Assembly: GCA_963828165.1 (NCBI GenBank) | Contig: CAWHDR010000001.1 | Span: 2,432,001-2,496,000 of the forward strand | Direction of reading: 5' to 3' | Source: an uncultured Chloroflexia bacterium | Lineage (GTDB): Bacteria > Chloroflexota > Limnocylindria > Limnocylindrales > CSP1-4 | DNA: 64,000 nucleotides | Shown here: piece after piece, positions 20,381-42,249 of the stretch | Layout of the letters: each line of letters opens with the position of its first letter | Position numbering within the stretch: position 1 is the stretch's first letter | Translations under genes and position numbers: made by a program | Notes under the pieces: generated by a model | What the model was told of the DNA's origin: nothing | Databases searched by the model: none | The model's input: only the letters and a program-made list of their open reading frames with translations

Positions 20381-20395
20381 GCGGGATGCATGCCA

Positions 20396-21440
20396 CTACC
20401 CGACGGTCGACGCGTGACCAGCACGATGAGCGCACCGAGCGTGCCGATGACGAACATCATCGTCCCGAGCGTGCGGAGCATCGCCGGCCCCGTCGGGTCG
20501 TTGGCACCCGGCAGGTCGAGTCCGGCGGCGACGCGGGACGGCGCATCCGGCACCGGAGGCGTCGATCGCCAGGTCGTACCCGAACTGGGCGGCCTCGCCG
20601 TCGAGCGCGACCTTGGACAGCCACGCATGCTGGGGCACCCATTCCATGCCGCGGTCGGACCGAAGGTCGGCCAGGAGCGACTCGGACGCGGGCTGGCTGT
20701 AGTCGAGCGACATGCCGTTGAAGCCGTCCGGCGCGGGCAGCATCGCGGGCTTCAGGTCGTTCAGGAGGTACACGTCGGCCTCGACGACTTCGGTCCCACC
20801 CTTGCCGAGGGCCAGGATGCGCAGCGGCACCCAGGGGTTCTCGGTCGGGATCGTGATGTGGACCGGCGTGCCGTCGCCGACGTTCTGGCCACGTGCCGCG
20901 GCCGCTTCGCCATCGAAGGCGGCAGCCAGGAAGATCTCGCTGCGGGCCGCGTAGAACTCGAGCACCTCGGGCGCGTCCGGCGGGAGGCGGAAGCCGTGGT
21001 CCTTGGCCCACACGCCGACCTCGTCGGCGCCGCCGCGCAGGACCGTGATGTCGAGCGCGTCGATCGTGACTTCCATGAGGACCTCGGCGGAGGCCGGCGG
21101 CCGCCGCGGCCGACAGGAGATCGAAGCTGAGCGCTCGCTGGACCGGGTCGGTCTCGAGGCGCAGCCGCTGGAGCGTCCAGTCGCCGCCCTTCTCGACACT
21201 CGTCGGTACCCCGGGGAGTGGCGTGAGACTGCCGAAGGCGCCACCGCCACCGGCGAACTCGAACGAGGTGATGTAGTGCTCCACCCCGTCGTGGTATCCG
21301 GCGAACGTCGTCGTCCGGAGCAGATTGACGGCCCCATTGGGACCGATGAGCCCGCCGCAGGCCAGAGCGGGGGCCGCAGTCACCGCGACCAGGAGGAGTC
21401 CGGCGATCAGGGCGCCGCCGGCTCGGTTGATCGAACGCAT
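20396..21440 (-). CDS. DUF2330-like exported protein (frameshifted)
   Basis: Signal peptide ending ALA-CGG, then GYHDGVEHYITSFEF...; ends in a probable C-terminal membrane anchor in another frame. Family call is from recalled sequence pattern. Confidence 0.6.
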
Positions 21441-21600
21441 CGTCGATCCTCCTGTCGGTCGGCCGGTCCCGTCGTCGGGCCGGTCCGTCGGCGGGTAGAG
21501 ACTGCCGGGCGGCGCGAGATGTTCCGCCCGCACGGGTCCCGGTGCCCCGTGGCACCATCGCGCCATGGCCACCACGGAACGGGGAGCTGACACTCCCCGC

Positions 21601-23214
21601 ATGCTCCACCGACTCGCGCCCCTCGGTTTCGCCGCGCTCCTCGCCGTGTCGGCGGTCGTCTCGGCTCCCGCCGCGGCCCCGGTCGCCGCCGCGGACTTCC
21701 CCGCGAAGGACTCCCGCTACCACACGTACGCGGAGATGGTCGCGGAACTGAACAAGGCCGTCGCCGACCACCCGGCGATCGTCAAGAAGTTCTCGATCGG
21801 CAAGAGCCACCAGGGCCGCGAGATCTGGGCCGCGAAGATCTCCGACCACGTGGGGACCGACGAGATCGGAGCCCGAGCTCCTCTTCGATGGCCTCCACCA
21901 CGCCCGCGAACACCTGTCGGTCGGAGCAGACCCTCGCGATCCTGCGCTGGCTGACCGACGGCTACGGCACGAGCGAGCGAGCCACGAACATCGTCAACAG
22001 CCGCGAGATCTTCATCATCTTCATGGTCAATCCCGACGGCGGCGAGTACGACCTGACCGGCTCGCCATATCGAGCCTGGCGCAAGAACCGCCAGCCCAAC
22101 GCCGGCAGCTCGTACGTCGGCACGGACCTCAACCGCAATTACGACTATCGATGGGGCTGCTGCGGCGGCTCATCGGGCTCCAAGTCCGCGCTCACGTACC
22201 GCGGCCCCAAGGCGTTCTCGGCGCCCGAGACGCGGGCGGTCCGCGACTTCATCAAGAGCCGAGTCGTCGGCTCGCGGCAGCAGATCCGCGCGGCCATCAC
22301 GTTCCACACGGCGGGCCAGGAGATCCTCTGGCCGTACGGCTACACCCAGACCGACATCCCCGCCGACATGAGCGCCGACGACCACGCCGCGCTCCGGGCG
22401 CTCGGCATCAAGATGGCCAGCAAGAACGGCTACACGCCCAAGCAATCGAGCAGCCTGTACGTCACCGACGGCGACGAGATCGACTACGCCTACGGCCGCC
22501 ACCGGATCTTCATGTACACGTTCGAGATGTACCCGAGCCATGCGCAGGTCAGCTCGACCGCTCGCTTCTACCCGCCCGACGAGCAGATCGTGCCGCAGAC
22601 CGACCGCAACAAGGACGCCATCTACTACCTGATGGAGTCGGCCGGCTGCCTCTACGCGCTCGTCGGCAAGCGCACGACCCACTGTGGGGCGCTACAACGA
22701 GGACTTCGAGATCTCGCGCGGCTGGAAGGCGGACCCGCTCGGCACGGACACGATCAGCGGCGGCGCCTGGCAGCGGGGCAATCCGTCGACGACCACGTAT
22801 CAGGCCGGGACCGTCCGGTCGGGATCCATGGCGCTGGTCACCGGTGCGTCGGCCGGGACATCCGCGAACTCGTACGACATCGACGGCGGACCGACCACGA
22901 TCCGCTCGCCCGAGATCAAGCTGCCGTCGACCGTGGGCAACCTCGTGTTCCGCTACTACCTGGCCCATGCCTCGAACTCGTCGTCCGCGGACGTGTTCCG
23001 CGCGTATGTCGAGGCCGCGGACGGGACGCGAACGCTCGTCCGCGAGGAACGCGGCGCCGCGAACAAGGACACGCCGGCGTGGACCCTCGCCACGATCCCG
23101 ATGACGCCGTGGGCCGGGCAGACGGTCCGGATCGTGTTCCTGGCGCAGGACCGGGGTACGGCCTCGACCGTCGAGGCGGCCGTGGACGACGTCCGGATCA
23201 CGCGACCGGAGTAG
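21601..23214 (+). CDS. secreted M14 zinc carboxypeptidase (carboxypeptidase T-like) with C-terminal beta domain; several frameshifts
   Basis: Signal peptide; [39 protein letters not shown]. Confidence 0.88.
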
Positions 23215-23224
23215 GGGCGGCGGC

Positions 23225-24468
23225 TCAGGCGGAGGTCAGCGGCAGGCTGGCACGGAACGTGGTGCCGGCGCTCCCCGTGGCCTCGACCTCGAGCGTGCCG
23301 CCGTGCGCGGCCACGAGGTGGCGCGCGATCGCGAGGCCCAATCCCGAACCGCCCGAACCCGCGCCCTTCACGAATCGATCGAAGACGTGCGGGAGCACGG
23401 CCGGGTCGATGCCCGAGCCCGAATCCGCGACCCTGCAGCACGAGCCGGTCGCCCGCGACCTCGCCGCGGATCACGACCGTGCCGCCGGCCGGCGTGTGCC
23501 GGATCGCGTTCGCGACGAGATTGGCGAGTACCTCCCGGAGCCGAACCGGATCCACGTCGAGGATCGGCAGGTCGTCCCCGACCTCGGCCGTGACGGTCAC
23601 CCCGGCCGTACCTGCCGCGCCTTCGAACGACCGCACGACCTCGGCGATCAGCACGTCCGGGTCGGTCGGTTCCCGATGCAGGGTGAGCGTGCCGGCCTCC
23701 GACAGTGCCACCGTCCGGAGGTCGTCGATGAGCCGCTCCATGACCCGGGTCTCGTCGAGGATCGCGCCCAGGCGGGCCTCGTCGATCGGGTGGACGCCGT
23801 CGATCATCGCCTCGAGGTTGCCCGAGATCACGGTCAGCGGCGTCCGAAGCTCGTGGCTCACGTCGGCGAGCAACGAGCGACGCTGCTGCTCGTCGACTTC
23901 GAGCCGCTCGACCATCGTGTCGAAGCCGCGGACGAGCTGGCGGACCGGACGGAAGCCGCCTTCAGGCACGTCGACGCGGACCGAATAGTCGCCGTCCTCG
24001 ACCCGCCGGGTCGCATCGACGAGCGAGTCGAGCGTCGCGGCATTCCGTCGCAGCCCTCGACCCAGGCTGATGATGGCGACCACGGCCACGAGGACCACGA
24101 TGATCGCGGGTCCTGGACCGCCATGGGTCACGATCGTGCTCAAGATCGTCCCGATGACGGTGAGGACGACCACGACGAACACGAGGAAGATCAGGCCGAA
24201 GAGACAGCCGAAACCGCGTCCACGGCGGCCACCCTGCCACGGGCCGTCCCCGCCCGGTCCCCATGGCGGACCGCCGCGCGCCCACGGCGGACCCTGACCC
24301 GGCCCCCAGCCTCGGCCGCCGTCGGCGCGTCGCTGGGCCGCCCACTGTTCCCACAGCTCGCGACTCCGCCTGGCGGTCGCCTCGCCGGTCGATCGGCGCC
24401 GACGGCGTCGCGCCGTCGCCGGGGCTCGCCGCGGCCTGGCCGCGCTCGTCGTCGCGCCGTGTCGTCAT
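23225..24468 (-). CDS. sensor histidine kinase (HAMP, BaeS-like), frameshifted
   Basis: Two TM helices, [30 protein letters not shown]; start overlaps the response-regulator stop (ATGA). Confidence 0.88.
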
Positions 24469-25179
24469 GCGTCCGTCGCCCGGTCGTCGGCGAGTCGATA
24501 GCCCACGCCGTAGACCGTGAGGACGTAGCGAGGCTGGCGCGGCTCGGGCTCGAGCTTGCGGCGCAGGTTCTTGACGTGCGAGTCGATCGCCCGCTCGTAG
24601 CTCTCGAACGCGACCCCGTGCAGCGCGTCGAGCAGCTGCGACCGCGTGAAGATGCGGCCGGGCTGGCGGGCGAGGGTCGCGAGGAGCGTGAACTCGGTCG
24701 GGGTGAGGTCGACGGTCCGGCCGGCCACCTCGGTCCGCATCCGCGGCACGTCCAGGGTCAGCGTCGCCGACCGTGATGACGTCGCCGGCCCCGACCGGGC
24801 GATCGGCACGACGCAGGACCGCCCGCACGCGCGCGACGAGCTCGCGCGGCGAGAACGGCTTGGTGAGGTAGTCGTCGGCGCCGAGCTCGAGGCCGAGCAG
24901 CTTGTCGAGCTCGTCGTCCCGCGCGGTCAACATCACGATCGGGAGGGCCGCGGTGCGCTCCGCGGTCCGGAGCTGGCGGGTGATGTCGAGCCCATCGAGC
25001 CCCGGCAGGCCGAGATCGAGGACCACGAGATCCGGGTTGCGCGTGCGGGCCAGCGCGAGGGCCGCGGGGCCGTCGGACGCCGTCAGCACGGCGAAACCCG
25101 CGTGCTCGAGGTAGTCGCGGGCGAGCTCGACGATCCGCGGCTCGTCGTCGACGACGAGGATGGTCTTCTGCGTGGTCAT
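24465..25179 (-). CDS. OmpR-family response regulator (frameshift near 24770)
   Basis: [23 protein letters not shown]; winged-helix LTPTEF...[12 protein letters not shown]...TVYGVGY. Confidence 0.92.
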
Positions 25180-25278
25180 CGGTCGCATCCTACGCGGGGG
25201 GAGGGGAGTGGCTGGGACGTACGCAGGCTCCGGCCCGGAGATCCGGGGCCGGAGCCGCTACGCCATGGGCCGTCCGGG

Positions 25279-25779
25279 TCAGGCGCCCGGGGTGCCGGTC
25301 GATGGCCGGTCGGTCGCCGACCCGCCGCCGGACTCGCCGGGGTTGTCGCGGTGCCACGAGTCGTGGAGCTCGCGGGCCTGGCGTTCCCAGGGGCGGTCGC
25401 CGTCGTGCTCGTGGTTGCCCCAGCCGCCTCGGCCGCCCGGGCCACCCGGGCCACCGCGGTAGCCCCAGCCGCCCGGTCCGCCCCAACCGCGACCGGCGCC
25501 GAACGCCGCTCGCAGCAGCCCGATGAACAGGAAGAGGATGAAGATCCCGAACAGGATCCCGAAGATCCCGGGGCCGCCGTGCCAGCCGAACCCGTAGCCG
25601 GGGCCGTAGCCATACCCGTAACCGGGGACGACCGGGGTGACGACCGTGCCGGCCGGTGCGCTCGCGGCGGCCGTGTTGACCGCCACCTGGACGCCGGTCT
25701 GGTAGGCGACGCTGGCGACGATGCTCCCTCCGACGAGCAGCGCGGCGATGACCAGGAATGCGATGAAGAACTGACGCAT
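25279..25779 (-). CDS. Gly-rich membrane protein upstream of the two-component system
   Basis: GGAGG RBS; two hydrophobic segments, GYGYG/GGPGG tracts, ELHDSWH C-terminus. Confidence 0.72.
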   Translation of the reverse strand: MRQFFIAFLVIAALLVGGSIVASVAYQTGVQVAVNTAAASAPAGTVVTPVVPGYGYGYGPGYGFGWHGGPGIFGILFGIFILFLFIGLLRAAFGAGRGWGGPGGWGYRGGPGGPGGRGGWGNHEHDGDRPWERQARELHDSWHRDNPGESGGGSATDRPSTGTPGA

Positions 25780-27654: not shown

Positions 27655-28607
27655 ATGTCGCTCGCCCGTCGCCTCGCTCTTCTCACCGCGCTCGCCCTGG
27701 CCCTGAGCCTCGTGCTGGCGCCAGCCGCCGCGGCCGTCCGGCCAGTGGATCCCGACCTGCCCGCCCGCATCGACCTGCCCGATGGCTTCCAGCCCGAGGG
27801 CATCGAGTCCGACAACGCGGGGAACCTGTACGCCGGGTCGCTCCGGGACGGCGACATCTGGACCGTCAACGTGCTGACCGGCGAGGAGCGCCTCCTCGTC
27901 GATAACGCGGCGGACGCCGGGCTCGTGTCGGTCGGGCTCCATCTCGACGACCAGGGGCGCCTGTGGGTCGCCGGCGGGCCGACGCAGCAGGTCCGCGTGT
28001 ACGACGTCGCGACCGGCGAGCTGCTCGAGACCTACCCGTTCCCGACGGCCGGGTTCATCAACGACCTCGACATCAGCCGCAACGCGGTCTACGCCACCGA
28101 CTCCGTGAACCAGCAGCTCGCTGGTCATCCCGCTGGGCGGCGGCGGCGCGCTGCCGGCTCCGACGGCCGCCACGACGATGCAGCTCACCGGCGACCTCTC
28201 GTACTCGGCCGGCTTCAACGCGAACGGCATCGCCGCCCGCGGCGGCTGGCTCGTGCTCGTCCAGGGGAACGAGGGCCTGCTGTTCAAGGTGAACCCGCGC
28301 ACCGGCGAGACGACCGAGATCGACACCGGCGGCTACTCCGTCGCCATGGGCGACGGGCTCGTGCTGCGCGGAAAGACGCTCTACGTCGTGCGCAACTTCG
28401 CGAACACCGTGGCCGTGCTGACGATGCGGGCCGGCCTGACCGAGGCGGAGCTGGTCGGGGAGTTCACGTCGGAGGACTTCGAGCTCGACATCCCGACCAC
28501 GGGGACGCTCACGCAGGGTGCCCTGTGGGTCGTGAACGCCCGGTTCAGCACGCCGCCGACGCCCGACACGCGAGTACTGGATCACGAGGCTGCCGACGCA
28601 GCCGTAG
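27655..28607 (+). CDS. secreted SMP-30/gluconolactonase-like beta-propeller protein (frameshifted)
   Basis: GGAGG RBS, signal peptide, LPDGFQPEGI, FINDL, YATDS, NANGIA, GDGL, VVNARF. Confidence 0.75.
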
Positions 28608-28721
28608 ATGAGCGGTGCCTTGCCGCACCGCTCGTGACAGGAGAGCTGTCACGCGTTTCGCCGAGGCTGACCGTGACGTCGGGGATCGACCGGGATCCTC
28701 GCGACTCGGAGGGGCCTGCCG

Positions 28722-28910
28722 ATGGTGGGCGAGACGACCTGGTTCGTTGGTGATCTGCGCTGCGTGACGTGCGGACGCGCCCTGAACGGCGACCCCGATG
28801 AGGACCCGACGGGCGACGCGGGCCAGCCAATCTGCGGCGAGTGCTATCGCGAGCGCGACTTCTTCCTGATTGACGCCGCTGACGGCCAGCTGGACGGCGA
28901 AATCGCGTGA
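28722..28910 (+). CDS. small acidic Zn-finger protein
   Basis: GGAGG RBS; CVTC...CGEC. Confidence 0.55.
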   Translation: MVGETTWFVGDLRCVTCGRALNGDPDEDPTGDAGQPICGECYRERDFFLIDAADGQLDGEIA

Positions 28911-29008
28911 TCAACAGGCTCAAAGCGACGGAATCGCCCAACACGTGCAGTACCATGCCGAGACCCCGCGACTCCCGTCACAAGTTTCGGGGTGCACCGG
29001 GGATGTCT

Positions 29009-30746
29009 ATGCGCGCGACCACCGCCATGCCGAAAGGCGAGACGGCCGAACGTCTCGTCGTCGAGAGGCTGCGCGCGGTGGTCGGATCCGGACGTCCTCG
29101 TCCTCGCCGGCGTGAAGTGGCTCCTGCGCGAGCGCGGGGCCGTACGCAACGGCGAGGCCGATGTGGTCCTCGGCGATCCCGGGCGCGGCATCCTCGTCAT
29201 CGAAGTGAAGGCCGGCGAGATCCGGCGGGACGACAGCGGAACGTGGTGGGCTGGGCCGAACCGGCTCGACCGGAGCCCGTTCGACCAGGCGCGCGACAAC
29301 AAGTACGCGCTGCTCAAGAAGCTCCATGAGCTACCCGACTGGCCCACCGACCTCAAGCCGATCAGCGGGCATGCCGTCGCGTTCCCTGATGTCGACCTTG
29401 ACACGATGCGCGGACGGCTGGGACTGCTCGGGCTCGATGCCGACAGCGAGCTCGTGGCCGACCAGTCGATGTTCGTCGACAGCGACGAGGGCCGGGACGA
29501 GCTGCGGCGCTTCCTCGAGGTGCCTTCGCCGCGTGGGGCCAGAGCGCGAGCGAGCGCGCGCCGGGACAGGCGGCGATCGACCTGCTGCGCGCCGTCGGGA
29601 CCGAGCCGTTCGAGATCCGCTCGATGCTGCGGCACGAGCTGGTCGAGGGCGAGCGCGACGTCGTCCGGCTGACGACACGGCCAGTTCCAACTTCTCAACC
29701 AGCTACGAAACGTGCGGCGGGCCTCGATCGTCGGCGGTGCGGGCACCGGCAAGACGCTGCTCGCGGCCGAGAAGGCGCGCCGGCTCGCGCGCGAGGGCTT
29801 CAACACGCTTCTCGTGTGCTTCAACGCGCCGCTGGCGCGCGTGCTGGCCGACGACCTTGAGCCCACGGCACGTGACACGGGGCTGCTAGACGTGAAGACC
29901 TTCCACCAGCTGTGCGAGGACCTCGGAAACGAGGCCGACGTGCTGGCCGCGCGGCCGGACCCGATCACGCAGGACTGGTGGGACCGGACGCTGCCGCGGG
30001 CACTCGATGACGCCGTTGCGAAGCTGGGTCCGCGATATCACGCGGTGGTGGTGGACGAGGGCCAGGATTTCGCGGCCGACTGGCTGGCGTCTCTCAACGA
30101 GCTGCTCACGGCGGGCGTGAGGACGTGCTGTACGTGTTCCACGACCCCGCCCAGGCGATCTATCGCGACGACGTCGTCGCGCAGCTCGGGCTGATCGAGT
30201 TCCCGCTCGAGACCAACTGCCGGAACGCGGCACCGATCCACGCGGTCGTGTCGCGGTTCGCGGAGGGCGGGCTGGCGTCGGAGGCGATGCGGATCGGGCG
30301 GTCGGGAGCCCGAGTTCGTGGAGGCCGCGGCCGGCGCCGAGACCGTCGAGGCGCTGCGGACGTGCTGCATCGACTGCGGGCGACCGACAGCGAGGCCGTG
30401 AACCCATGGGACATCGCGGTCCTGACGGCGTCGAAGCTGGAGGAGTCGGCCGGTCTGGTTGGCCCCGGGTCGTCGGTACGGGAACGAGGTGCTCGGAAAC
30501 CCTGCCTACGATGACGCCGGGCATCACCTGGGACTGCCGGCGCACCTCGCGCCGCCGCTGCCCGACGACGTGATCCTGTGCGAGACGATCCGGCGGTTCA
30601 AGGGCCTCGAGAAGCCCGTGATCGTGCTGGTCGAGCTGCGCGAGGACGACAAGCGGCTCGATCGGATGCTCTACGTCGGCGCGTCGCGGGCACGGCAGCA
30701 CCTGGTCGTCATCGCGCCCGCAGGCGTACTTGAGAAGCTTCGATGA
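29009..30746 (+). CDS. NERD-like nuclease fused to SF1 (UvrD-like) helicase; multiple frameshifts
   Basis: GEADVV...GILVIEVKAG...SPFDQA (PD-(D/E)xK NERD); GGAGTGKT, VVVDEGQD, NCRNA, TIRRFKGLE, LYVGASRA. Confidence 0.85.
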
Positions 30747-31018
30747 TCGCTGTGGCGCTCCCGCTTCGGACGAAGATCGGCGAGCGACAGCGGTGTCCTC
30801 GATGTGCCTCGAGGGATGTGGCGAGGATCCTCCGCGGCTATCCGATCTTCGGTGATGACCTCCGAGTGCGCATCGACGCGGGCGAGGTCGTCCTTGGCGG
30901 TTGTGCGCTGATGGGCAACGATCCCGACTTCCGCTGTCACAGCTGTCGTCATGAATTCCGCGATCGACCGGCGGCTGCACGTGGCGCCCACGGCGTCGTC
31001 ACGGCTTGTGACGGATGA
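30743..31018 (+). CDS. small Cys-rich Zn-ribbon protein
   Basis: ATGA overlap with the helicase stop; CPRC...I.GYP...GEVVLGGC...P..RCHSC. Confidence 0.7.
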   Translation: MIAVALPLRTKIGERQRCPRCASRDVARILRGYPIFGDDLRVRIDAGEVVLGGCALMGNDPDFRCHSCRHEFRDRPAAARGAHGVVTACDG

Positions 31019-31782
31019 CATGACCGCGCCGAAGAGTCGCAAGCTGGCGTCGAAGTCGATGCTGCGCACCGCCAACGTGTTCTTGAGGCCGTTGGCCATA
31101 GCAAGACCGATATCGGGAATCAGCCGCTGACCTTCCATTGGCCGTTGGTCGGGAGCAGGTTCGACCGCGGTGTCCTCGTGGTGGGTCAGGCGGTTTTCGG
31201 CTGGTTCGGTGACTGGACGGCGGCAGACGCGACCGACATCAGGGGGCGTTCAAAGATTGTCGGAGAGGCTCGGGATCTCTTCTGCGACCGGCCCGACCGC
31301 ATGGACTGGATCCAGGGACATCGAGTCTGGAATTCGCCGTTTTGGCGGGTCGCTCGTGACGTCACGGAAGCCGTTGCCCCGGGTGACGGGCCCTTCTACG
31401 CTCGGATGGCCTGGGCAAATCTATATCCGATCGCTCCTAACGATGTGAAGTCAAACCCCGGCGGGGCGCTCCTCTGAGGCGCAGACGGTGCCTGCTGCCG
31501 CGTTCCTTGATGCCACGATCGACAGGATTTAGCCCCGGCGTGGTCTTGGTGGTCGGCGGTCCATATATCTGGCCGTTCATCTATCCGCTTCGCCTCGACA
31601 AACTCACGACCGCACAGCGACCGCTCGACCTCACCGGCCTCCGAGATGGCATCGACTGGATCGTCGGGCAGCACCCTGGCGGAGCGTCTCGACGCGGCTG
31701 GGGACTCCGACGCTACGGCGAGCTCATATCCAAGACTCTTGGAATGACTGTGACGGGGGTCGACCATGCCCGGTGCCGGTGA
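31015..31782 (+). CDS. uracil-DNA glycosylase superfamily-like protein (frameshifted)
   Basis: Joined frames give VLVVGQAVFGW (motif A-like), SPFWR, AWANL, PGVVLVVG and IVGQHPG (motif B-like). Confidence 0.6.
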
Positions 31783-32104
31783 ACCGTCGGAGAAGGACCT
31801 GGAGTACCGGGAGCTCCTTGCTCGATTTCCATTGACGGGGCGTGCGCCGTCCGGACCCGAGGCTACTGTGCTTGCGCGGCGCCTCCAGGGAGACCTGGGC
31901 GCCCTCGTCGCCCAATGGGATGACGCCCGTACCTACTGCCGGGCCGAGAAACGACGGTGGCGAGTGACCAGCTCAAGAAGTTCCTCGATCAGAACAACCT
32001 ACGCCGAAGCGTTGAATGATCGGCAAAGTGCATGGATCGAGCAGATCCTCGAGCTTCCTGCCAGTCGTGCGACTACCGGGCGACGTGCCCGGTGCGGTCT
32101 GTGA
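31766..32104 (+). CDS. hypothetical protein immediately upstream of the MORC ATPase
   Basis: ATG overlaps the end of the preceding gene; no recognisable domain; probable internal frameshifts. Confidence 0.45.
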   Translation: MPGAGEPSEKDLEYRELLARFPLTGRAPSGPEATVLARRLQGDLGALVAQWDDARTYCRAEKRRWRVTSSRSSSIRTTYAEALNDRQSAWIEQILELPASRATTGRRARCGL

Positions 32105-32138
32105 TCGAGCGGGTTGCTATTCACGCTGTGTTGATGTC

Positions 32139-33606
32139 GTGAGAGAAATCGCGCTTCCGCCCAACGCCCCGGCACTGCTTGCGTCGCTGCGGGCGATCGG
32201 CTATTCGTTCGATTCGGCACTGGCCGACATCGTTGACAACAGCCTTGCGGCCGAGGCGACCAGGGCCGATGTGTGGTTCCCGCCTCGCATCCCTTTGTAC
32301 CTCGCCATCGTTGACGATGGGCTTGGTATGTCTGCGGAAGGGCTGATCGCAGCCATGCAGCACGGCGGCGTCGGGCCCGACGAAGCTCGCGCCGAGGGAG
32401 ACCTCGGCCGTTTCGGGCTGGGGTCTGAAAACGGCGTCGTTCTCGCAGTGCAAACGCCTAACCGTCGCGACAATGCATCACGGAAAACTGCATGGAGCGG
32501 CCTGGGATCTCGACCGGGTCAAGGAGACGGGCGAGTGGACCTTGATGCTCCTGGACGAGGACGAAGTTGCGGCACTGCCTCATGTGGATCGGGTCCGTGC
32601 TAACGGCCGCGGGACCCTCGTGCTGTGGCAGGAGCTCGACAGAGCACTCGCCGGCGAGGCGGATCCAGCCGATGCGTTGGGACGCCTCATGGACAAGGCC
32701 CGATCGCACTTGGGCCTCGTATACCACCGGTGGATCTCTGCCGAATTGGGGCAGTCGAGGATCGTCCTTTCCATGAACGGATTGCCCGTCGAGGCGTCGG
32801 ACCCGTTCCTCACCTCCGTCTCCACTGAGCAGCCATCCCAGAAACTGAACGTCGAAGGGAGGCAAATCACGTTCACTCCCTACATCCTTCCGCACCGGTC
32901 TCGCTTGTCCAAGAAGCAGCTGGCCGAAATCGACGGCGAGGACGGGCTACGCCGATCTCAAGGCTTCTACGTCTACCGGCAGCGCCGTCTCATCACGTCA
33001 GGGACTTGGTTCAGGCTAATGCGGCAAGGCGAGCTCACGAAGCTAGCCCGCGTGCGCGTCGATATCCCCAACGCCCTGGATCACCTGTGGCAGCTCGACG
33101 TGAAGAAGTCGACGGCTACGCCGCCGCAGCAGGTCAGACAGGGCCTCCAGCAAGTGATTTAAGAATTCGGTCAGGGCAGCGAAAAGGTGATTAATCACCG
33201 CGGTTGGAAGGAGAAGAGCCCAGTTACCCGTCTCTGGGACCGCCTCGAGATGCCTGCGGGGGTGAACTACGCGATCAACCGGGGTCACCCGGCCGTATCT
33301 GCCGTTGCTTCGGGTATGACTCCTAGGAGCGCCCAATACTTCGACCGGCTCCTCGACGCACTGGAATTCACGATCCCGTTCGAGGCCATCTACGCCGACA
33401 TCGCGTCCGAGCGAGATCTGAAAACTGAGGCGCCGCCGGAGGATGTCGAAGAGGCGCTGAAGGCGATGCTTGATGCAATGGTCACGGCGCTTACCACGAA
33501 TTCGCAGGCCCTCGACAAGCTTCTTAAACAGGTCCCGACGATAGAGCCCTTCTCCAGCTATCCCGATCTTGCGAAGCAACTTCTCCAAGAGGTGCGCGTT
33601 GACTGA
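32139..33606 (+). CDS. mzaB: MORC/MutL-like GHKL ATPase (MzaB-like); frameshift near 32425, interruption near 33160
   Basis: SLRAIGYSFDSALADIVDNS, DDGLGM, DLGRFGLG(L)KTASFSQC, QGFYVYR..RLI..GTW, LARVRVDIPN, LDVKKS. Confidence 0.85.
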
Positions 33607-36284
33607 CACCGTCGCCGATCTGCTTGATCGGACCATCATGGCCTCGCTTCCGACAGATCGTAAGCCGACCGAGGCGGAGCTTCATGAGCGAGCGGAGGCG
33701 CTGCGCAAGGCCTTCCCTGTTCCGGATGATGTCTTCACAGCTGTCGTCAAGGCGATCGAGGCGCGGCTCGTGATTTCCATGGACATGGGCACGGTCCTGT
33801 CCAGACCGGACCATGTTCCTTGGCTGATGGGTAGGAAGGCCGAGATCGATCCGTTCTACTTCGAGCGATACCGTCAGTACCTGCCGAAGCTAGCCATGAC
33901 GCCGGCGGTGATCGGAACGCTCGATCGAGTCACGGACGAGCTTCTTGACATGTGCGGCAACCCGCACTTGGCTGGGCAGTGGAGCCGGCGGGGCTTGGTG
34001 GTCGGCGACGTTCAGTCGGGCAAGACAGCGACCTATACGGCCCTTACGTGCAAGGCCGCTGACGCAGGCTATCGGCTCATCGTCCTCATGACGGGGACGC
34101 TCGAGAACCTTCGCCGCCAAACCCAGCAGCGGTTGGACGAGGGCTTCGTCGGGCTCGACAGCTCAGACAAGCTGCAGAAAGCGCAGATCGCCAAGAACAA
34201 TGCGGTCGGCGTTGGCGTCATCGACAACCGGCGGGTCGCGGGCGTCTTCACCTCGCGGTCCCGGGACTTTAGCAAGGTCTTGCTGAACAGCCTTGGCTTC
34301 CGCCTGGATGCCTTTCAGGAGCCCGTGCTCCTCGTCATCAAGAAGAACGCGCGAATCATCGAGAACCTCCACAACTGGCTCGAGGCATATAACAGCGGGC
34401 CCGACGGGAGGATTGCCGCGCCACTGCTCCTCATCGACGACGAGGCGGACTCGGCTTCAATCAATACGGCGGACCCCTCGGGAGACCCAACCGCGATCAA
34501 CACCCGAATGCGAAAACTGCTGAGCCTCTTTCACAGGTCGACTTATGTTGGCTTTACGGCAACGCCCTTCGCTAACGTGTTCGTGGATCCGGACACGGAA
34601 GATGAAATGCTCGGTGATGACCTGTTCCCGCGCGACTTCATCTACGCACTCGAGGCGCCCTCGAACTACATCGGCGCACAGATCATCTTCTCTGACGAGC
34701 TGACAGGCGTCCTGTCGAACGACGACGCGAGGGACTGGTACCCGCCGAAGCACAAGTCGACTTACATTCCGGCGGGCTTGCCCCCGTCCCTGTCGGAGGC
34801 TATGCGGTCCTTCTTCGTCGCCTGCACCATCAGAGACCTTCGAGGCGAGCGCAGTGCGCATCGCTCGATGCTCGTCAACGTCTCGCGCTTCACTGCTGTT
34901 CAGAACGTGTCACGGGACCTGATCTACGAGTACGCGGCCGCCCTCCAGCGGGACATTCGCAACTTCAGCCAGCTGCCAGGCGACGATGCGATGCTCAACG
35001 GCTCCCTCGTTGACCTGAAGACCACTTGGCAGGAACAGTTTAAGGACGCGGGGACGTCCTGGCGTCAGGTGCGAAATCAGCTGCACGAGTCGACCTCCCC
35101 AATCACGGTGAGGTCAGTGAACCAAAGTGCTCCGGCCGCCTCGTTGGACTACACGAGTTATGGGTCTGGGCTCCGGGTCATTGCTGTGGGTGGCGACAGC
35201 CTCTCTCGAGGCCTGACCCTGGAAGGGCTGAGCACTAGCTACTTCTACAGGAATTCCCAAGCCTACGACACGCTAATGCAGATGGGCCGCTGGTTCGGGT
35301 ACCGGGATGGTTACGCCGACCTGTGTCGCGTATGGCTAACTGATGAGGCGGTCCACTGGTACTCCCACATCTCGATGGCCTCTGACGAGCTTCGCGCCGA
35401 ATTCAAGAGGATGTGGTCCTTGAATTTCACGCCCAAGGACTTCGGCATGAAGGTGAGGTCGCACCCAGATGCCCTGACCGTCACGGCCCGGAACAAGATG
35501 CGTTTCGCCGAGGACTTCGTCCGGGATATCTCCTTGTCTGCCAACGGCATTGAAACAGCGCGTCTCTTGGCGTCCGAGGCACAACTGGATGCCAACGCGC
35601 TGCGAGTTGAAGCATTCGTCGGTCGGATGGAGGCCGCTGGGCTCCAGGTCGAGGACTCCGAGTGGGGATCCAAGATATGGCGAGGCGCGCCAAAGGCCCT
35701 CGTGGCCAGCCTCCTTGCAGAATTCGAGACCCATCCGCGCGCAGTTGACTTCCAAGGCAAGGCTATTGCGAAGTTCCTCGAAGCGACCACGGTTCCTGCG
35801 CTCGACGTCTGGGACGTCGCCATGCCCCAGGGCAGTGGTGATCCTGAAGTGTTCGCCGGCATCGAGTTCAAGCCCCCCAAGCGATCAATCGTCGCAAAAT
35901 CCGGGGATTTGCTCTCTCCTCGTTTCTGGAGCGAAGGCGCGTGTAGGAAGTCGCGGAGTCGAACGAGAGGGCATGACGGAGGCAGAGGTCCGCGCCGTTG
36001 AACAGGCGAATCCGGGGCCCAACGTCTCGGACAAGCAGTATCGCCTTGGGCGCCGCCGACCGCTCTTCCTGCTCCACGTTCTAAGGGGTACGGCTGGCGA
36101 GGACAAGGCCCCATTCCGGCCGGCACCAGCTGCACCGCTTACAGCGCTCGGGCTGAGCTTTCCCGAATTCGACGACAGCGGTATCGCAGGTCGTGTCGAG
36201 TACAAGGTCACGATGAGGTTCTGGAAGGATCTTTTCGATGTCGAAGCGTCCGACGAGGTAACAGGTGCGGACGATGCTGATTGA
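33599..36284 (+). CDS. mzaC: Z1-domain SF2 helicase-like protein (MzaC-like); frameshift near 35910
   Basis: GDVQSGKT, NLRRQTQQRL, IDDEADSASIN, YVGFTATPFAN, SMLVNVS, SRGLTLEGL, DTLMQMGRWFGYR. Confidence 0.9.
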
Positions 36285-37203
36285 CGGCGCCTGGGAGAAA
36301 GTCAGCACCGCAGCCTCCGATGGAGGCTACATAAGGATTGATCCCACGCATCCCGGGGACTTCTTCGCTGCCGAGGATGCCGAACGTCGCAAGGGTCTGG
36401 TGCTCTTGCTCGACATCGAGCCCCCGAAGCCCCCCAAACTTGAGTCACTCGAGTTAGCGATCACGCAGCGGCCCGATAGTCGATGGGTGCTGAGTGTCTA
36501 CCTACACTCAGGCGCCCTGCTTGCGCCATTCACCCAACTCTGTGAAGACCTGATCGCATCGAGCCGGGGCGTATCGCAGGATCGCATCGGATCGTTCGTC
36601 GTGGCGCGCCTTCATCGCTGGCAAGACCTGCTCGAAGGCGCATCCACGTGGTCGATGAGCAAACTGCGGGGCTTCCTCGGAGAACTCCGCCTACTCCACC
36701 TTGCCGCGAACACAGTTGGCGCCGAGACGGCCGTGCTGGCCTGGGCCGGCCCCTACAGCGCCCCTCAGGACTTCGCGCTGCCTGGGACATGGATCGAGGT
36801 GAAGGCGACATATCCCACGGCAAGAACAATTCGGGTCACATCGGCGGATCAACTGACTGCCCCGGGCGAACTGCTTCTCGCTGTATTCACGTTCGCGACA
36901 CTCGTTCCCGACCAGCAAGGAGTCTCGGCCGGCAGTCTTGTCACGGACTTCGAGGCAAGGCTGGCAACCGATGGACTCGCTGACAGCCTTCTGGAATTCG
37001 GTAAGCGACTGTCGGTCGTAGGCTTCGACCGGACCGCCGATTACGCGGCAGTCGGGTTCCGAGAGGATGCGTTGCACTTCTACGCAGTCGGCGGGTCGTT
37101 TCCCCGGCTCACACCTTCCGATCTCCCGGCCGGCGTTGCCGAATGCACGTATGACCTTGAACTCGGCGCACTCCCGCCATTCGAGGTCACCTCGCCTTTC
37201 TAG
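36274..37203 (+). CDS. mzaD: PD-(D/E)xK motif protein (DUF4420-like, MzaD-like)
   Basis: GFLGEL, WAGP...QDF...IEVKA, VTSADQL, FPRL; lies between the Z1 and AIPR genes. Confidence 0.85.
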   Translation: MLIDGAWEKVSTAASDGGYIRIDPTHPGDFFAAEDAERRKGLVLLLDIEPPKPPKLESLELAITQRPDSRWVLSVYLHSGALLAPFTQLCEDLIASSRGVSQDRIGSFVVARLHRWQDLLEGASTWSMSKLRGFLGELRLLHLAANTVGAETAVLAWAGPYSAPQDFALPGTWIEVKATYPTARTIRVTSADQLTAPGELLLAVFTFATLVPDQQGVSAGSLVTDFEARLATDGLADSLLEFGKRLSVVGFDRTADYAAVGFREDALHFYAVGGSFPRLTPSDLPAGVAECTYDLELGALPPFEVTSPF

Positions 37204-37212
37204 GGAATCACG

Positions 37213-39291
37213 ATGGATCTCAACGAGTTTCGCGAATTGTTCCTGAATACAGTCGATGTCCGCGCGGCCAGTGAGGGAGACTTTCGTCACACGGCGTTCG
37301 TCGAGTACGCCTGCGAACAGCTCGGTGAAGCCGGCGAGATCAGCGACTACCAAGTGGCGTTCTATCGCGGCGTGGGGACGAAGAGCCGAGCCTTGGGTGT
37401 CGATGCGTACGCGTTCGACGACGCCGACTCCTCCCTGCGCTTGGTGCTGGCGAATCCCACCCATGCGGAAGCGGCCACCAGCTTCACGACGAGCGATATC
37501 TCGCCCCTCGTCTCGAGGGCCCTCACATTCATCGAAGACGCGATCTCTGGCCGGAGTCTATCGGCGATTGAGCCGTCTCTACCCGCTTGGGACCTTGCCA
37601 ACGACATCAACAAACGTGCAGGCGACCTGGCTCGGATCCGCGTGTATCTCATCACCGATGGGGTGCTCAAGGTTCGGTCGACGGACTGGGCTGAGGGCGC
37701 GATCGGAGCACTTCCCGTGGAGGTCCACGTGTGGGACATCGCCCGCTTCCACCGCATGGCGGAGTCCGTATCGGGGCGTGACGAGCTCGTTATCGACTTC
37801 GCAGCGCGGCAACCTGGCGGGTTACCGTGTCTGCCCGTGGCCGCGGGCAGCTCAGAGTACGAGGCGTATCTCCTGGCCGTGCCCGGCCCACTGCTGGCGG
37901 ACATCTACGACGAATTCGGAAGTCGTCTGCTTGAGGGCAACGTCCGCTCCTTCCTCTCGACGCGACCGGCCGTCAACAAGGGCATCCGCAATACCGCCAC
38001 CAACCAGCCGCACATGTTCTTCGCTTACAACAACGGGATCGCCGCCACCGCCAGTAAGGTAGAGGTCCGGAGCACTCCGAGCGGGCCGTCTTTGGTCTGG
38101 GCCGCGGATCTTCAGATCGTGAACGGAGGACAGACGACCGCGTCTCTCGCAACGGCGCGGCGCACTGAGAAGAAGGACCTAACTGGGGTCTTCGTGCAGA
38201 TGAAGCTGTCGGTTGTCACGGCCGAGAAGTCTGCCGAAATGGTCCCAAGCATCGCCAAATTCGCCAACAGCCAGAACAAAGTGAGCGAGGCGGACTTCTT
38301 CTCGAACCACGAATTCCACCGCCGCATTGAGGGCTTCGCGCGCCGAATTTGGGCCCCGGCGCCGGCGGGTTCCCAGCACGAGACGAAGTGGTTCTACGAG
38401 CGGGCTCGCGGGTCCTACCTCAACGCACAGGCAACGCTCACTCCCTCAAGGAGGCGGCAGTTCCTGCTAGAGAACCCGAAGTCACAACTCGTCACCAAGA
38501 CAGATCTCGCGAAGTCCGAGATGGCATGGGCGGGAGAGCCCCACATCGTGAGCTTGGGCGCTCAGAAGAACTTCCTGAAGTTTGCTGAGTCCGTTTCCAC
38601 TGCGTGGGAAAAGGACAACACACAGTTCCACGAGGGCTACTTCAAGGACGCGATGGTCCGTGTCCTCCTGTTCCGGGCCATTGAGCGCATCGTCTCGGAC
38701 CAGTCGTGGTACCAAGGAGGCTACAGAGCCAACGTCGTCGCCTACACAATGGCGAAGATGCCGCAGGCGATTTCCCACCAGTCCGCAGGTCTGACGTTCG
38801 ACTTTGACAGCATCTGGAAGAAGCAGGCGCTTCCGGATGTCGTTCAGCGTCAGCTCGGGATCGTGGCCAAGGCGATGCATGAGGTGATCACCTCCCCTCC
38901 CAGCCACGTGCAGAACGTCACTGAGTGGGCAAAGCGCGTGACCTGCTGGGAAAGGGCCAGGGAGATCGACGTCGATCTCATGCCGGCGTTTAGGCCCCTT
39001 CTCTTGTCAAGATCGAAGGCACGCGAGGCCGAGGTCGGGGAGAAAAAGCAGCAGAAGGTCGACTCGGGCATCGAAGCCCAGAGGAAGGTCCTGGAACTCG
39101 GCTTGGAGTTCTGGGGCGGCATGCGATCGTGGGCCAACGTACGGCAACTTCTGATCGGTGATGAAGACACCCTGCTCAAGTTTGCGTCCGGCCAAGGAAG
39201 CGGCTTCCCAGATGACCGCCAGAGCGTTCGCCTGCTACGGCTCAAAGAGAGACTGGAAGGCGAGGGCTTCGATCTCACGCGGCCCATCTGA
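37213..39291 (+). CDS. mzaE: AIPR family protein (MzaE-like)
   Basis: GSRLLEGNVRSFL, VNKGIRNT, FFAYNNGI, QIVNGGQTT, NSQNKV, WFYERARGSY. Confidence 0.92.
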   Translation: MDLNEFRELFLNTVDVRAASEGDFRHTAFVEYACEQLGEAGEISDYQVAFYRGVGTKSRALGVDAYAFDDADSSLRLVLANPTHAEAATSFTTSDISPLVSRALTFIEDAISGRSLSAIEPSLPAWDLANDINKRAGDLARIRVYLITDGVLKVRSTDWAEGAIGALPVEVHVWDIARFHRMAESVSGRDELVIDFAARQPGGLPCLPVAAGSSEYEAYLLAVPGPLLADIYDEFGSRLLEGNVRSFLSTRPAVNKGIRNTATNQPHMFFAYNNGIAATASKVEVRSTPSGPSLVWAADLQIVNGGQTTASLATARRTEKKDLTGVFVQMKLSVVTAEKSAEMVPSIAKFANSQNKVSEADFFSNHEFHRRIEGFARRIWAPAPAGSQHETKWFYERARGSYLNAQATLTPSRRRQFLLENPKSQLVTKTDLAKSEMAWAGEPHIVSLGAQKNFLKFAESVSTAWEKDNTQFHEGYFKDAMVRVLLFRAIERIVSDQSWYQGGYRANVVAYTMAKMPQAISHQSAGLTFDFDSIWKKQALPDVVQRQLGIVAKAMHEVITSPPSHVQNVTEWAKRVTCWERAREIDVDLMPAFRPLLLSRSKAREAEVGEKKQQKVDSGIEAQRKVLELGLEFWGGMRSWANVRQLLIGDEDTLLKFASGQGSGFPDDRQSVRLLRLKERLEGEGFDLTRPI

Positions 39292-39463
39292 TGCCGCGTC
39301 CGATCCCGACCAAGGGTCACACTCGAGCAGATCTGGATGCGCCAAGATCTCCCCGTCCCTCGCAGCCAGGCTAGGACGGCGAGCTAGGTGTCACTGAGAC
39401 CCGAGCTTGAGCGGGCGAGGCAAAGAGCTAAAAGGCCGTCGATGAGGTTGCGCGATTTGGGGT

Positions 39464-39904
39464 CTACCCTCGAGGACTCGACTCGCCGACGGTTGGCGCG
39501 CAGCGGCGCCTGATTCTATGGGCGAGTGCGTCAATGCTCTGAAGCGGATCGCACTCCCAGATTGTCTCGACCTGCCATCCGTTCTGGCGGAGCTTCGCTT
39601 CCACCAAGGCGTCTCGATCCACATTGGCGTTGAGCTTGTTGCGCCAGAAGTCGACGTTGGTCCCGGGCTTAGTTGCGAGACGACAGTCTCGATGCTGATG
39701 CCAGAAGCAGCCGTGCACGAAGACGGCGGTACGAGCGCCCCTGAGAACCAAGTCAGGCTTCCCCGGAAGGCTGTTGACATGCAGCCGATACCGGATTCCG
39801 GCGGCGTGCAGCCTCCGCCGGACGCGCATCTCCGGCTGGGTGTCCTTGCCGCGGATGCGACTCATCATCCGACTGCGCGTCGCAGCATCGACGATGTCAG
39901 GCAT
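39464..39904 (-). CDS. vsr: very short patch repair endonuclease
   Basis: RSRMMSRIRGKDTQPE, LPGKPD, FVHGCFWHQH, NVDRD, IWEC. Confidence 0.95.
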   Translation of the reverse strand: MPDIVDAATRSRMMSRIRGKDTQPEMRVRRRLHAAGIRYRLHVNSLPGKPDLVLRGARTAVFVHGCFWHQHRDCRLATKPGTNVDFWRNKLNANVDRDALVEAKLRQNGWQVETIWECDPLQSIDALAHRIRRRCAPTVGESSPRG

Positions 39905-41132
39905 CGGGGTGGTCCGGTCGACTGGAGGCCGTGAGCGACTCGAGCAGGGTGGCGACCGTTGCTAGAGAAGCCCTGTACGCATGGTTCGCGTACGCCGTCT
40001 CGATTAGCGGTCCCGGAAGAAATGGCTGGATTCGTGCCGACACCATCGCGGCGATAACCGATCCCGTGAGCCCTAGGTCCACAGTCAGCAAAAACTTGAC
40101 GGGGATGCGCGCCGCCTCATTCAGGACCTGCCGCCAGCGCTCCTTTGCGGTCGACTTGCAGGCGACCATACGCAATCTGCGTGACGGGAAGTGCGCGTCA
40201 TGGTATTCGGGACATCCTGGCACCAGGAAGTCCGGTCGCTCTCCGGGCTCCGTCTGGCACTGCTCCGTGAAGGGGATGCCCGAGGCACGCAGGAGCGTGG
40301 CGAAGTGGTTTTGGAGGCTCTGGCCTCGCCGAGATTTCCGAGACTGTTGGATGGACATTGCGAAGTCGAGGATCTCAGTCAGGTTCGGACGCGTCGCGGC
40401 CAGCTGTTCATAGCGGGAGCGTTGGACCTCGTCCTCGATCGCGAAGTAGAGGTCGGTCTCGGCCCGGAGTGCTGCAAATAGGTAATCGTCTGGATCGTTG
40501 GGACCTGCGCCGCGGTTGCGGGCGATCTCGTCTGCCGCTGAGGCCATTTCGCGGGTGTTCGGTACGGCACCCTCCCGGGACGCGCGATGGAAGAGGGCGT
40601 GGTCGGTTACGTCGTACAGACCGGCGGGGATCGGCCCGGGGATCGGCCCGTTGTGAGGGGTCAGCTGGCCGGTTATCAATCGTGATTCGGTTTCGTCGGG
40701 CAGGGGAACGTCGAGAAAGCGGAAACGCTCGCGAACGGCGTCTTCGCCGAGCTCGAGTGCGCGGAGGAGTTCGTGCTCGGGTTGCGTGCCAGCCCTTGCG
40801 ATGACCGCGCGAAGGCCATGGTCGTATCGATAAAGAAGGAGCAGGTCACCCTGCGCGGCGTGCGTCGGAATCACGTCGCCGACATAGTAGAGGTGCCACT
40901 CCGACCGCTCCAGGTTGCGCTCGCGGGCGTCGTAGAGAGTGAACACCGTTTCGTCGACAACCGGGGTCTCGCTTGTTGCGCGGAGAATCAGGATCCCGAG
41001 AGGACCGGACCACCGTTCCGCGGGCAGTCCGAGCTCCCGTCGGAGTTCGCCAGCGTGGAACTCGTGCTGATGCGAGCGCCCCGGATCGGTTTCGACGGCA
41101 GATAGGCGCTTGACCGCAATCCGAAGCGCCAC
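39897..41132 (-). CDS. EcoRII-like type II restriction endonuclease
   Basis: N-terminal KRLSAVETD..SHQHEF; C-terminal SRKSRRGQSL.NH, PDFL.PG, KSTAKERWRQVLNEA. Confidence 0.85.
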   Translation of the reverse strand: MALRIAVKRLSAVETDPGRSHQHEFHAGELRRELGLPAERWSGPLGILILRATSETPVVDETVFTLYDARERNLERSEWHLYYVGDVIPTHAAQGDLLLLYRYDHGLRAVIARAGTQPEHELLRALELGEDAVRERFRFLDVPLPDETESRLITGQLTPHNGPIPGPIPAGLYDVTDHALFHRASREGAVPNTREMASAADEIARNRGAGPNDPDDYLFAALRAETDLYFAIEDEVQRSRYEQLAATRPNLTEILDFAMSIQQSRKSRRGQSLQNHFATLLRASGIPFTEQCQTEPGERPDFLVPGCPEYHDAHFPSRRLRMVACKSTAKERWRQVLNEAARIPVKFLLTVDLGLTGSVIAAMVSARIQPFLPGPLIETAYANHAYRASLATVATLLESLTASSRPDHPDA

Positions 41133-41136
41133 GGCG

Positions 41137-42248: not shown

Positions 42249-42249
42249 G

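Follow-up and report, generated by a model that had tools for sequence, protein, structure and literature searches.

A candidate stand-alone DNA glycosylase of the Brig type at the edge of a defence island, behind a NERD helicase gene, in an uncultured Chloroflexia bacterium

Antiviral DNA glycosylases have been recognised between 2024 and 2026 (Brig1, Brig2, Brig3 and the Dag proteins), each of them reading a different base modification of phage DNA. Brig1 (bacteriophage replication inhibition DNA glycosylase 1) excises alpha-glucosyl-5-hydroxymethylcytosine; in the available part of the report, its residues Y121 and E147 lie 26 positions apart and its immunity in E. coli is independent of RecBCD, RecQ, RecJ and RecA (Hossain et al., 2024; PMC11078745). 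Brig3 is described, in the accessible text, as excising 5-hydroxymethylcytosine (5hmC), with N50, W100/F101 and D127 being the residues that matter, and its gene overlaps an accessory gene, bapA (10.64898/2026.02.25.707755); Brig2, according to the sections available, targets hypermodified thymidines (Getz et al., 10.1101/2025.10.29.685425). Here we describe a 3.1-kb stretch (positions 29009..32104) within a 64,000-nucleotide (nt) window of the genome of an uncultured Chloroflexia bacterium, in which genes for a NERD nuclease-helicase, a small Zn-ribbon protein, a protein resembling uracil-DNA glycosylases (UDGs; hereafter the UDG-like protein) and a small open reading frame (ORF4) lie in front of genes of the Mza type. 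We favour, with moderate confidence, the reading that this stretch is a junction between a resident helicase gene and the first three genes of an island, and that the glycosylase is a stand-alone defence enzyme of the Brig1/2/3 type. Its family looks like an undescribed relative of the Brig glycosylases, in literature searches that were not aimed at this exact family.

The UDG-like protein belongs to an uncharacterised branch of the UDG superfamily, of ~250 amino acids (aa), and is an addition to the four canonical UDGs of this genome; a genome-wide search with PF03167 (E<=0.001) recovered four canonical UDG loci elsewhere, the UDG-like gene not being among them. When 5.8 billion proteins were searched with the longer of the two window pieces of this frame-broken gene, 94 clusters were returned, nearly all of 220-265 aa and none with a Pfam domain; a profile search of 1.84 billion representatives gave 1,335 relatives at E<=0.001, 797 at 1e-10 and 46 at 1e-30, counted as representatives at 50% identity clustering. 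Neither window piece matched a Pfam family at E<=0.01. PF03167 was scanned against 115 of 150 listed relatives (28 short or partial proteins of 73-228 aa and 7 already seen being excluded) and matched 24 of them at E<=0.001, 8 of these 24 at or above the 24.3-bit cut-off; because the relatives match and the window protein does not, its link to PF03167 is transitive only. The family profile found 0 matches among PDB sequences at E<=10, and no relative turned up in viral contigs or, by tblastn, in plasmids.

Structural comparison places the protein in this superfamily, and the sequence evidence, though weaker, agrees. Homologue P0002, with 60-71% identity to the window protein over three frames, yielded an AlphaFold2 model with a mean predicted local distance difference test score (pLDDT) of 92.9, and Foldseek aligned this model with 25 PDB entries at E<=0.001, all of them family-4 UDGs, thymine-DNA glycosylases or UdgX (best match 4ZBY). 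The alpha/beta UDG fold spans the whole domain, and two of the three nearest clusters in the ESM Atlas are named as UDG family. An alignment of 29 family members with the two window pieces (A1) showed the conserved blocks HWPLVG, GQAV[YF]GW, SPFWR, WANLYPxAPN..K.NP and HPGGA[QS]RRG; within these, G54-Q55-A56-V57, N132 and H216-P217 (numbering of P0002) are at least 90% conserved. By comparison with family 4/5 UDGs (PF03167) the fold is shared, and probably also GQAV at the position of GEAP/GLAP and HP[GS], which we take to be motifs A and B, and an Asn in an N-x5-P-N-like stretch. The UDG-like family differs in having no conserved cysteines for an Fe-S cluster and in the distance from motif A to the stacking Phe, ~51 residues as opposed to ~13 in the UDG of S. 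tokodaii, as read from residue numbers. Alignment by hhalign with the genome's own family-5 UDG placed PLVG..VLVIGQAV on PGFG..ILIVGLAP (E 0.02), over 17 columns covering motif A only. Two relatives, P0110 (456 aa) and P0111 (575 aa), carry the UDG-like domain at the C-terminus, after 215-340 extra residues without a Pfam family; such fusions might hint at a partner function.

Set beside the Brig glycosylases, as these appear in the available parts of the three reports, the UDG-like family has a number of features in common with them. Like Brig1 it is a single UDG-superfamily protein (both ~250-266 aa), annotated only as hypothetical, found in soil bacteria with high-GC genomes and located in defence islands, where its gene stands alone as Brig-type genes do; the stacking aromatic residue and the pocket residue are 26 positions apart in both (Y121-E147 in Brig1, F106-N132 here). 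Against Brig3 the numbers of three residues that are near-invariant in the UDG-like family run at a constant offset of 5 (N50/F101/D127 versus Q55/F106/N132), both proteins having 51 residues from motif A to the stacking Phe, and in both cases the operon lies within a defence island and the glycosylase gene overlaps a small or unknown gene that follows it. The pocket residue, by contrast, is acidic in Brig1 (E147) and Brig3 (D127), whereas the position judged equivalent by spacing is Asn (N132) in at least 90% of the UDG-like family; motif A reads Q-A-V here and N-P-S in Brig3, and an alpha-glucosyl-5hmC target is not expected. Brig2 and integron-borne UDG-like proteins are likewise divergent proteins with the UDG fold, encoded at mobile or defence loci, and hypermodified thymidines, the target of Brig2, are within the substrate class that we propose below; homologues of Brig2 are, however, reported from Proteobacteria, Bacteroidetes and Firmicutes, whereas genome matches of the UDG-like family are mostly in Chloroflexota. 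The family may overlap the 11 clusters of that study (10.1101/2025.10.29.685425). In the accessible supplementary table of Brig1 homologues there are no names of the type Chloroflex*, Sphingomonas or Solirubrobacter* (PMC11078745), and the Brig3 structure was not among the PDB matches of our model.

On this reading the UDG-like glycosylase most likely acts alone, like Brig1, Brig2 and Brig3: in phage DNA entering the cell it would flip out a non-canonical base and cut the N-glycosidic bond, and the resulting abasic sites would stop phage replication. Since N132 occupies the pocket position at which Brig1 has Glu and Brig3 has Asp, the comparison suggests a uracil- or thymine-type target (deoxyuridine, 5-hydroxymethyluracil or a hypermodified T), not a cytosine derivative.

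The distribution of the gene is sparse: among 185,579 species genomes (one genome per species) it was found at 11 loci, in nine metagenome-assembled genomes (MAGs) of Chloroflexota, one of Solirubrobacterales and, as a fragment, one of Sphingomonas. Neighbours were called with a simple ORF picker based on third-position GC content (GC3) and with tblastn cut-offs of 1e-2 to 1e-4, and several of these loci are in indel-rich long-read MAGs. At least seven of the ten informative loci (L010 was left out, being cut at the UDG-like gene) have restriction-modification (R-M), Type IV, OLD/GajA-like or SoFic genes or a NERD helicase within ~5 kb. In L001 the next selected ORF downstream is a Type IV methyl-directed enzyme (mREase, 6.9e-269), the glycosylase gene being overlapped by one short ORF without annotation; in L003 a Type I R-M system is directly upstream. 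L004 has a GajA/OLD-like ATPase-TOPRIM protein; L005 a ParE toxin, with a NERD helicase upstream; L007 SLATT and SoFic; L008 a Type IIG enzyme, a HARE-HTH-Mrr protein and a weak SRA-like protein; L009 Dcm-Vsr-EcoRII upstream, together with a methyl-directed endonuclease (DUF6998); and L011 a NERD helicase upstream of the UDG-like gene. The protein fits a self-sufficient defence gene because no partner is common to all of these loci. Searches (tblastn) with the window genes found the Zn-ribbon, ORF4 and Mza genes in none of the 11 loci, and in none of a further 17 metagenome loci, most of them shorter than 3.1 kb, which contained the UDG-like gene alone.

The helicase seems to have a different history from the genes behind it. 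Its domains were identified by Pfam as NERD (1e-06), AAA_19 (1.6e-07), UvrD-helicase (1.7e-05) and UvrD_C_2 (6.2e-10), and the NERD signature D...EVK, Walker A (GGAGTGKT) and Walker B (VVVDEGQD) are all recognisable. In this order, an N-terminal NERD nuclease of the PD-(D/E)XK type followed by a superfamily 1 (SF1) helicase, it resembles Nhi and other single-gene NERD + UvrD helicases. It differs in that its better PADLOC matches are candidate or accessory models (C3a187 'NERD+UvrD', 2.8e-17; RTasNERD-Hel, 2e-15); the Nhi model matched (E 2.1e-05) in a single piece and there only at residues 14-48, the P-loop stretch, the gene having been searched in pieces. It also differs from Nhi-type systems in its native GC (0.701 versus 0.696 for the genome), in its presence in 56 of the 137 genomes (41%) of its own family and in having a conserved small CxxC partner. 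Orthologues with intact frames of ~580-890 aa are present in 81 of 401 genomes of the class (G000 included). Homologues of the partner, up0, are 58-77% identical to it and immediately precede the orthologous helicase in L005, L054, L055, L060, L061 and L062, as well as in L083, L084, L087, L088 and L089; up0 has no Pfam family and may work with the helicase or regulate it. The downstream flank is variable. Twenty loci of the nearest helicase orthologues were taken, each with ~11 kb downstream, and these contained toxin-antitoxin genes (BrnT, PIN, HicA, PemK, DUF2442), UvrD-PDDEXK_1, ADP-ribosylglycohydrolase, AlkZ-like glycosylase, BrxC/D with SNF2-Mrr and Mrr, or housekeeping genes. We therefore read the helicase and up0 as a resident gene pair of the lineage with a variable site behind it, and the helicase may serve defence or repair across the whole lineage instead of being part of the island's cargo.

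GC content falls at the helicase stop and remains at 0.58-0.65 as far as position 43,062, returning to 0.695 in the TetR gene, the first gene past this segment; the 5th percentile of genome-wide 1.5-kb windows is 0.656. Individual values are 0.649 for the Zn-ribbon, 0.633 for the UDG-like gene, 0.644 for ORF4, 0.61-0.62 for MzaB-E and 0.63-0.65 for the R-M genes. Given this GC break and the varied downstream content in relatives, 30743-43062 is read as a 12.3-kb low-GC anti-phage island inserted at a variable site directly behind the resident helicase and up0. It comprises the Zn-ribbon gene, the UDG-like gene, the 83-aa helical ORF4, MzaBCDE without MzaA and a convergent Dcm-EcoRII-Vsr set (Table 1). 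The Zn-ribbon gene, which is short and has a start that overlaps the helicase stop, could belong either to the island or to the helicase. Only short, chance-level direct or inverted repeats were found at the island ends, and there are no tRNA genes in the window.

Within the island, PADLOC profiles of MzaB, MzaC, MzaD and MzaE were matched in that order on one strand, as in Mza (mzaABCDE); MzaB matched its profile in three pieces, at 7-99 (1.4e-17), 94-345 (6.6e-43) and 371-493 (8.4e-12), and MzaC at E 2.1e-149. The helicase, Zn-ribbon, UDG-like protein and ORF4 differ in being no Mza components. MzaA, which the available text of PMC9523054 describes as a sigma factor, had no match in the window when the whole genome was searched with PDLC02203 (E<=1); the sole match in the genome is ~40 kb beyond the window, and 11 of 14 control genomes likewise have a match to this model. 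The EcoRII-like endonuclease has EcoRII-C only, at residues 257-419 of a 435-aa frame, the N-terminal 250 residues being without a Pfam family; the L009 counterpart combines EcoRII-N with EcoRII-C. The segment 42363-43062, which separates the methyltransferase from TetR, has the lowest GC of the region (0.58) and may be the right end of the island or a control region; within it lie a near-perfect hairpin (42497-42542) and, on the minus strand, a 148-aa frame without annotation (42533-42976).

Table 1. Positions of the genes at the helicase-island junction and in the island, numbered from the first letter of the window
Feature	Position	Strand	Evidence and remarks
Small CxxC...CxxC protein up0, 62 aa	28722..28910	+	Conserved upstream partner of helicase; outside 29009..32104
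NERD nuclease + SF1/UvrD-like helicase, ~580 aa	29009..30746	+	Pfam, PADLOC; 5 frame changes
Zn-ribbon protein, 91 aa, CPRC...CHSC	30743..31018	+	Intact
UDG-superfamily glycosylase-like protein, ~250 aa	31020..31782	+	Two +1 insertions; start frame off
ORF4, small helical, ~83 aa	31766..32018	+	Assembled as 112 aa to 32104 through frameshift
MzaB, HATPase_c_3 / MORC-like ATPase	32139..33606	+	PADLOC; Pfam HATPase_c_3; 2 frame changes
Feature between MzaB and MzaD	33569..36284	+	
MzaD, DUF4420, putative PD-(D/E)XK protein	36265..37203	+	Pfam DUF4420 5.3e-48; PADLOC MzaD 4.3e-15
MzaE, AIPR	37213..39291	+	Pfam AIPR 3.2e-97, AIPR_N 1.4e-36; PADLOC MzaE 1.6e-82
Vsr	39464-39904	-	Pfam Vsr 2.5e-29; PADLOC Vsr
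EcoRII-C endonuclease	39897-41132	-	Pfam EcoRII-C 4.8e-43; PADLOC REase_II
C5 cytosine methyltransferase, frame-broken	41137-42362	-	Pfam DNA_methylase 8.4e-38; PADLOC MTase_II

An earlier sequence-only reading of this DNA had named the domains (NERD with SF1 helicase, Zn-ribbon, UDG-like protein, Mza genes downstream), all of them correctly, and had pointed to the close junctions between the genes and to their common direction. These features are indeed in the sequence: the helicase stop and the Zn-ribbon ATG share ATGA at 30743-30746, as the ORF tables also show; the Zn-ribbon stop is overlapped by ATGA at 31015-31018; the UDG-like gene, with its stop at 31780-82, overlaps the start of ORF4, the ATG at 31766 lying 17 nt inside it; and 34 nt separate the assembled ORF4 stop at 32104 from the in-frame GTG at 32139 with which MzaB begins, all five genes being on the plus strand. 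Two of the junctions nevertheless need revision. The letters at 31015 are as reported, but they read ATG ACA TGA and are unusable as a start; a likelier start of the UDG-like gene is the ATG at 31020, 1 nt past the Zn-ribbon stop, although homology to the family begins only at ~31061 and in a different frame from this ATG. The 34-nt gap, likewise, holds for the assembled sequence, but because the ORF4 frame homologous to its relatives ends at ~32016-18 (a frameshift lying near 31,940), the real distance to MzaB is ~120 nt. A promoter and terminator scan of 28500-32400 found none above shuffled controls. Overlaps of stop and start codons are commonplace where bacterial genes are arrayed, and on their own they do not show a functional unit.

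It had also been proposed that the helicase, Zn-ribbon, UDG-like protein and ORF4 form one defence system of no named type, the glycosylase marking modified or uracil-containing phage DNA and the NERD nuclease-helicase degrading it; the marks would then be abasic sites at which the nuclease-helicase loads. That the combination has no name stands, as no PADLOC model matches the Zn-ribbon, UDG-like protein or ORF4 (E<=0.01); that it works as one system we consider quite unlikely. Such a system would be in keeping with the tight co-directional packing and the ATGA overlap between helicase and Zn-ribbon, and also with the presence of a helicase of the same subfamily (~40-70% identity by piece) on the same strand, 0.9-1.3 kb upstream of the UDG-like gene, at 2 of the 11 genome loci (L005 and L011). 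Ten other genomes have the UDG-like gene, and the helicase is present in four of these: adjacent in two, on another contig in one and apparently ~18 kb off in one (G432), a distance which assumes that contig C6 is the contig of L002; with the window included, the two genes adjoin in three of the five genomes that have both. However, no such helicase was found in the other six of the ten (E<=1e-15), and the 20 loci of nearest helicase orthologues have no UDG-like gene, no ORF4 and no adjacent Zn-ribbon, a single Zn-ribbon-like match lying 10 kb away in one of them. The sequence between helicase and UDG-like gene in L005 and L011 matched neither the Zn-ribbon nor its counterpart in the other locus (tblastn; tblastx was noisy at high GC); the Zn-ribbon and ORF4 are each found elsewhere without the other genes; GC is native in the helicase and not in the other three; and Brig1 immunity, in the text available, needs none of RecBCD, RecQ, RecJ and RecA (PMC11078745). 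Starting from any of the four genes, then, there was no conserved co-occurrence: the four-gene set was found in no other locus examined, nor was any with more than two of the four, with tblastn cut-offs of 1e-2 to 1e-4 and short metagenome contigs. The cassette as a working unit was not borne out, and genes packed closely at the margin of a defence island do not thereby make a system. A looser version, in which the helicase and a Brig-like glycosylase act as a facultative two-step pair, with abasic sites or nicks serving as entry points for the NERD protein, the phage genome being shredded and the Zn-ribbon and ORF4 being adaptors or regulators, would explain the glycosylase lying directly behind the helicase in three of five genomes with both, and seems improbable to us as well. 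It is also unlikely that the UDG-like protein is a repair accessory of methylation comparable to Vsr, which would remove U or T from U:G and T:G at C5-methyltransferase sites and so protect the host. A pocket Asn is, by our reasoning, typical of UDG families that recognise uracil or thymine; Dcm-Vsr-EcoRII genes are within 10 kb in 2 of 12 loci (the window and L009), and the family is nearly always beside R-M genes. Most loci, on the other hand, have no nearby C5 methyltransferase and have Type I/IIG N6-type, Type IV or OLD-like neighbours instead, while this genome already has four canonical PF03167 UDGs and has Vsr in the same island; the patchy, island-borne distribution (11 loci in 185,579 species genomes) fits defence better.

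The frame changes raise a further alternative, namely that the region is a decaying remnant in which real mutations have turned the genes for the helicase, the UDG-like protein, ORF4 and MzaB into pseudogenes that no longer function in this organism, which we regard as possible but doubtful. Mapped on intact orthologues, the helicase has frame changes near 29.09, 29.5, 29.68, 30.11 and 30.45 kb; the UDG-like gene has two internal +1 insertions that show in A1, at ~31,476 and at TTT ~31,520, in addition to the start problem; and the Zn-ribbon gene is the only intact one of the four. With one change in ORF4, near 31,940, and two in MzaB, there are ~10 in the 4.6 kb from 29.0 to 33.6 kb, or ~2.2 per kb, compared with 0.067 per kb genome-wide (7 in 82 orthologues of a short-read relative, ~105 kb), and rpoB and rpoC are intact, all of which would fit decay. 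The excess is, however, regional and not island-specific because conserved flanking genes are also broken: 11 such window genes have 5 frame changes in ~10.5 kb (0.48 per kb), all at 10.6-22.7 kb, and the genes for a response regulator, a histidine kinase, an L-PSP protein and trypsin/MoxR have Pfam domains that continue in a different frame. Between the breaks, identity of 53-75% to intact homologues is kept with no further stops in the homologues' frames, and, of the five helicase shifts, four compensate each other in pairs. We think it probable that the frame changes are assembly (consensus) errors, real decay being a distinctly weaker possibility. Conserved non-island genes at 10,600-25,300 and 43,700-46,100 of the window are frame-broken, with indels far above the genome average; those affected include two genes at 10.1-12.9 kb, an M14 peptidase (2 breaks), the response regulator, the histidine kinase, L-PSP and trypsin/MoxR.

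A stand-alone Brig-type enzyme behind a resident helicase remains the reading that we favour, although several observations weigh against it. Active UDG families have Asp, Glu or Asn in motif A, whereas GQAVY of the UDG-like family has Gln and neither an acidic residue nor Asn, so that catalysis would need Gln55 or some other residue, and the window copy, being frame-broken, may be dead. Kinship with Brig1/2/3 is drawn from the fold, the spacing of residues and a best PDB hit in common, and not from an alignment, and both the glycosylase activity and the anti-phage role of the family are properties that we infer. At two loci (L002 and L006) no clear defence gene was seen among the neighbours; the ATGA shared by helicase and Zn-ribbon is not expected at the edge of an island; and adjacency of helicase and UDG-like gene in three of five genomes is more than independence would predict, except at a strong hotspot. 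The point of interest that is left is an undescribed family of Brig-like glycosylases whose genes are found repeatedly, though not always, behind a NERD helicase. This branch, with 1,335 representatives, a pocket Asn and no Pfam or PADLOC model, lies beside restriction and Type IV systems; if its members are active, it could bring a new substrate specificity to this class of defence enzymes and an enzyme for mapping or cutting modified bases.

The Zn-ribbon protein represents a rare family. The search of 5.8 billion proteins gave two close clusters only, of 79-80 aa with 79-81% identity and the same start (MIAVA), and the Pfam matches to Zn_ribbon_8 and Zn_ribbon_IS1595 were both below cut-off. 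Weak relatives (30-46% identity) were present in 12 of 60 related genomes, none beside window genes in the seven loci taken. In L034-L039, from genomes of ~1.1 Mb within the same order, a Zn-ribbon domain is 31-44% identical to that of the window, and in L034 and L039 it lies just upstream of an ORF identified by eye as ADP-ribosylglycohydrolase-like; ADP-ribosylglycohydrolases are reported neighbours of brig1 and brig3.

ORF4 may be a DNA binder of the helix-turn-helix type, or a small regulator, which we offer as a lead only. Its homologues form four clusters of 81-93 aa, and it aligned with one of them, P0097, in two frames (31766-31939, then 31924-32013). The AlphaFold2 model has four helices (pLDDT 83.1); Foldseek gave no match at E<=0.001, with a weak list made up mostly of LysR, homeodomain, Myb and GerE DNA-binding domains, and Pfam gave one sub-threshold match to DUF6415 and no family reaching cut-off. 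MzaA was considered as an identity for ORF4 and rejected, the MzaA profile having 683 positions and no match in the window; BapA was rejected on size and fold, being described in the accessible text as exceeding 250 aa with two beta-barrels, whereas ORF4 is ~83 aa and all-helical.

Only two convincing matches to ORF4 were found in a 400-genome sample of the class. One homologue, in a genome of the same genus (G010), follows UvrD-PDDEXK_1 and precedes a 140-aa unknown ORF, DUF6998 and a STAND-like ATPase, with Mza, the UDG-like gene and the Zn-ribbon all absent from this locus. The region itself (L046, G010:C6:3000-22999, at 3400-15200 on the minus strand) is a second locus of the same type in a same-genus genome, and its order is an up0-like gene, YccF, an unknown ORF, UvrD-PDDEXK_1 (1192 aa), the ORF4 homologue, the unknown 140-aa ORF, DUF6998, the STAND-like ATPase, a DUF3320 protein and an AlkZ-like glycosylase. 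DUF6998 of L046, which corresponds to a methyl-directed restriction endonuclease model, also neighbours the UDG-like gene in L009.

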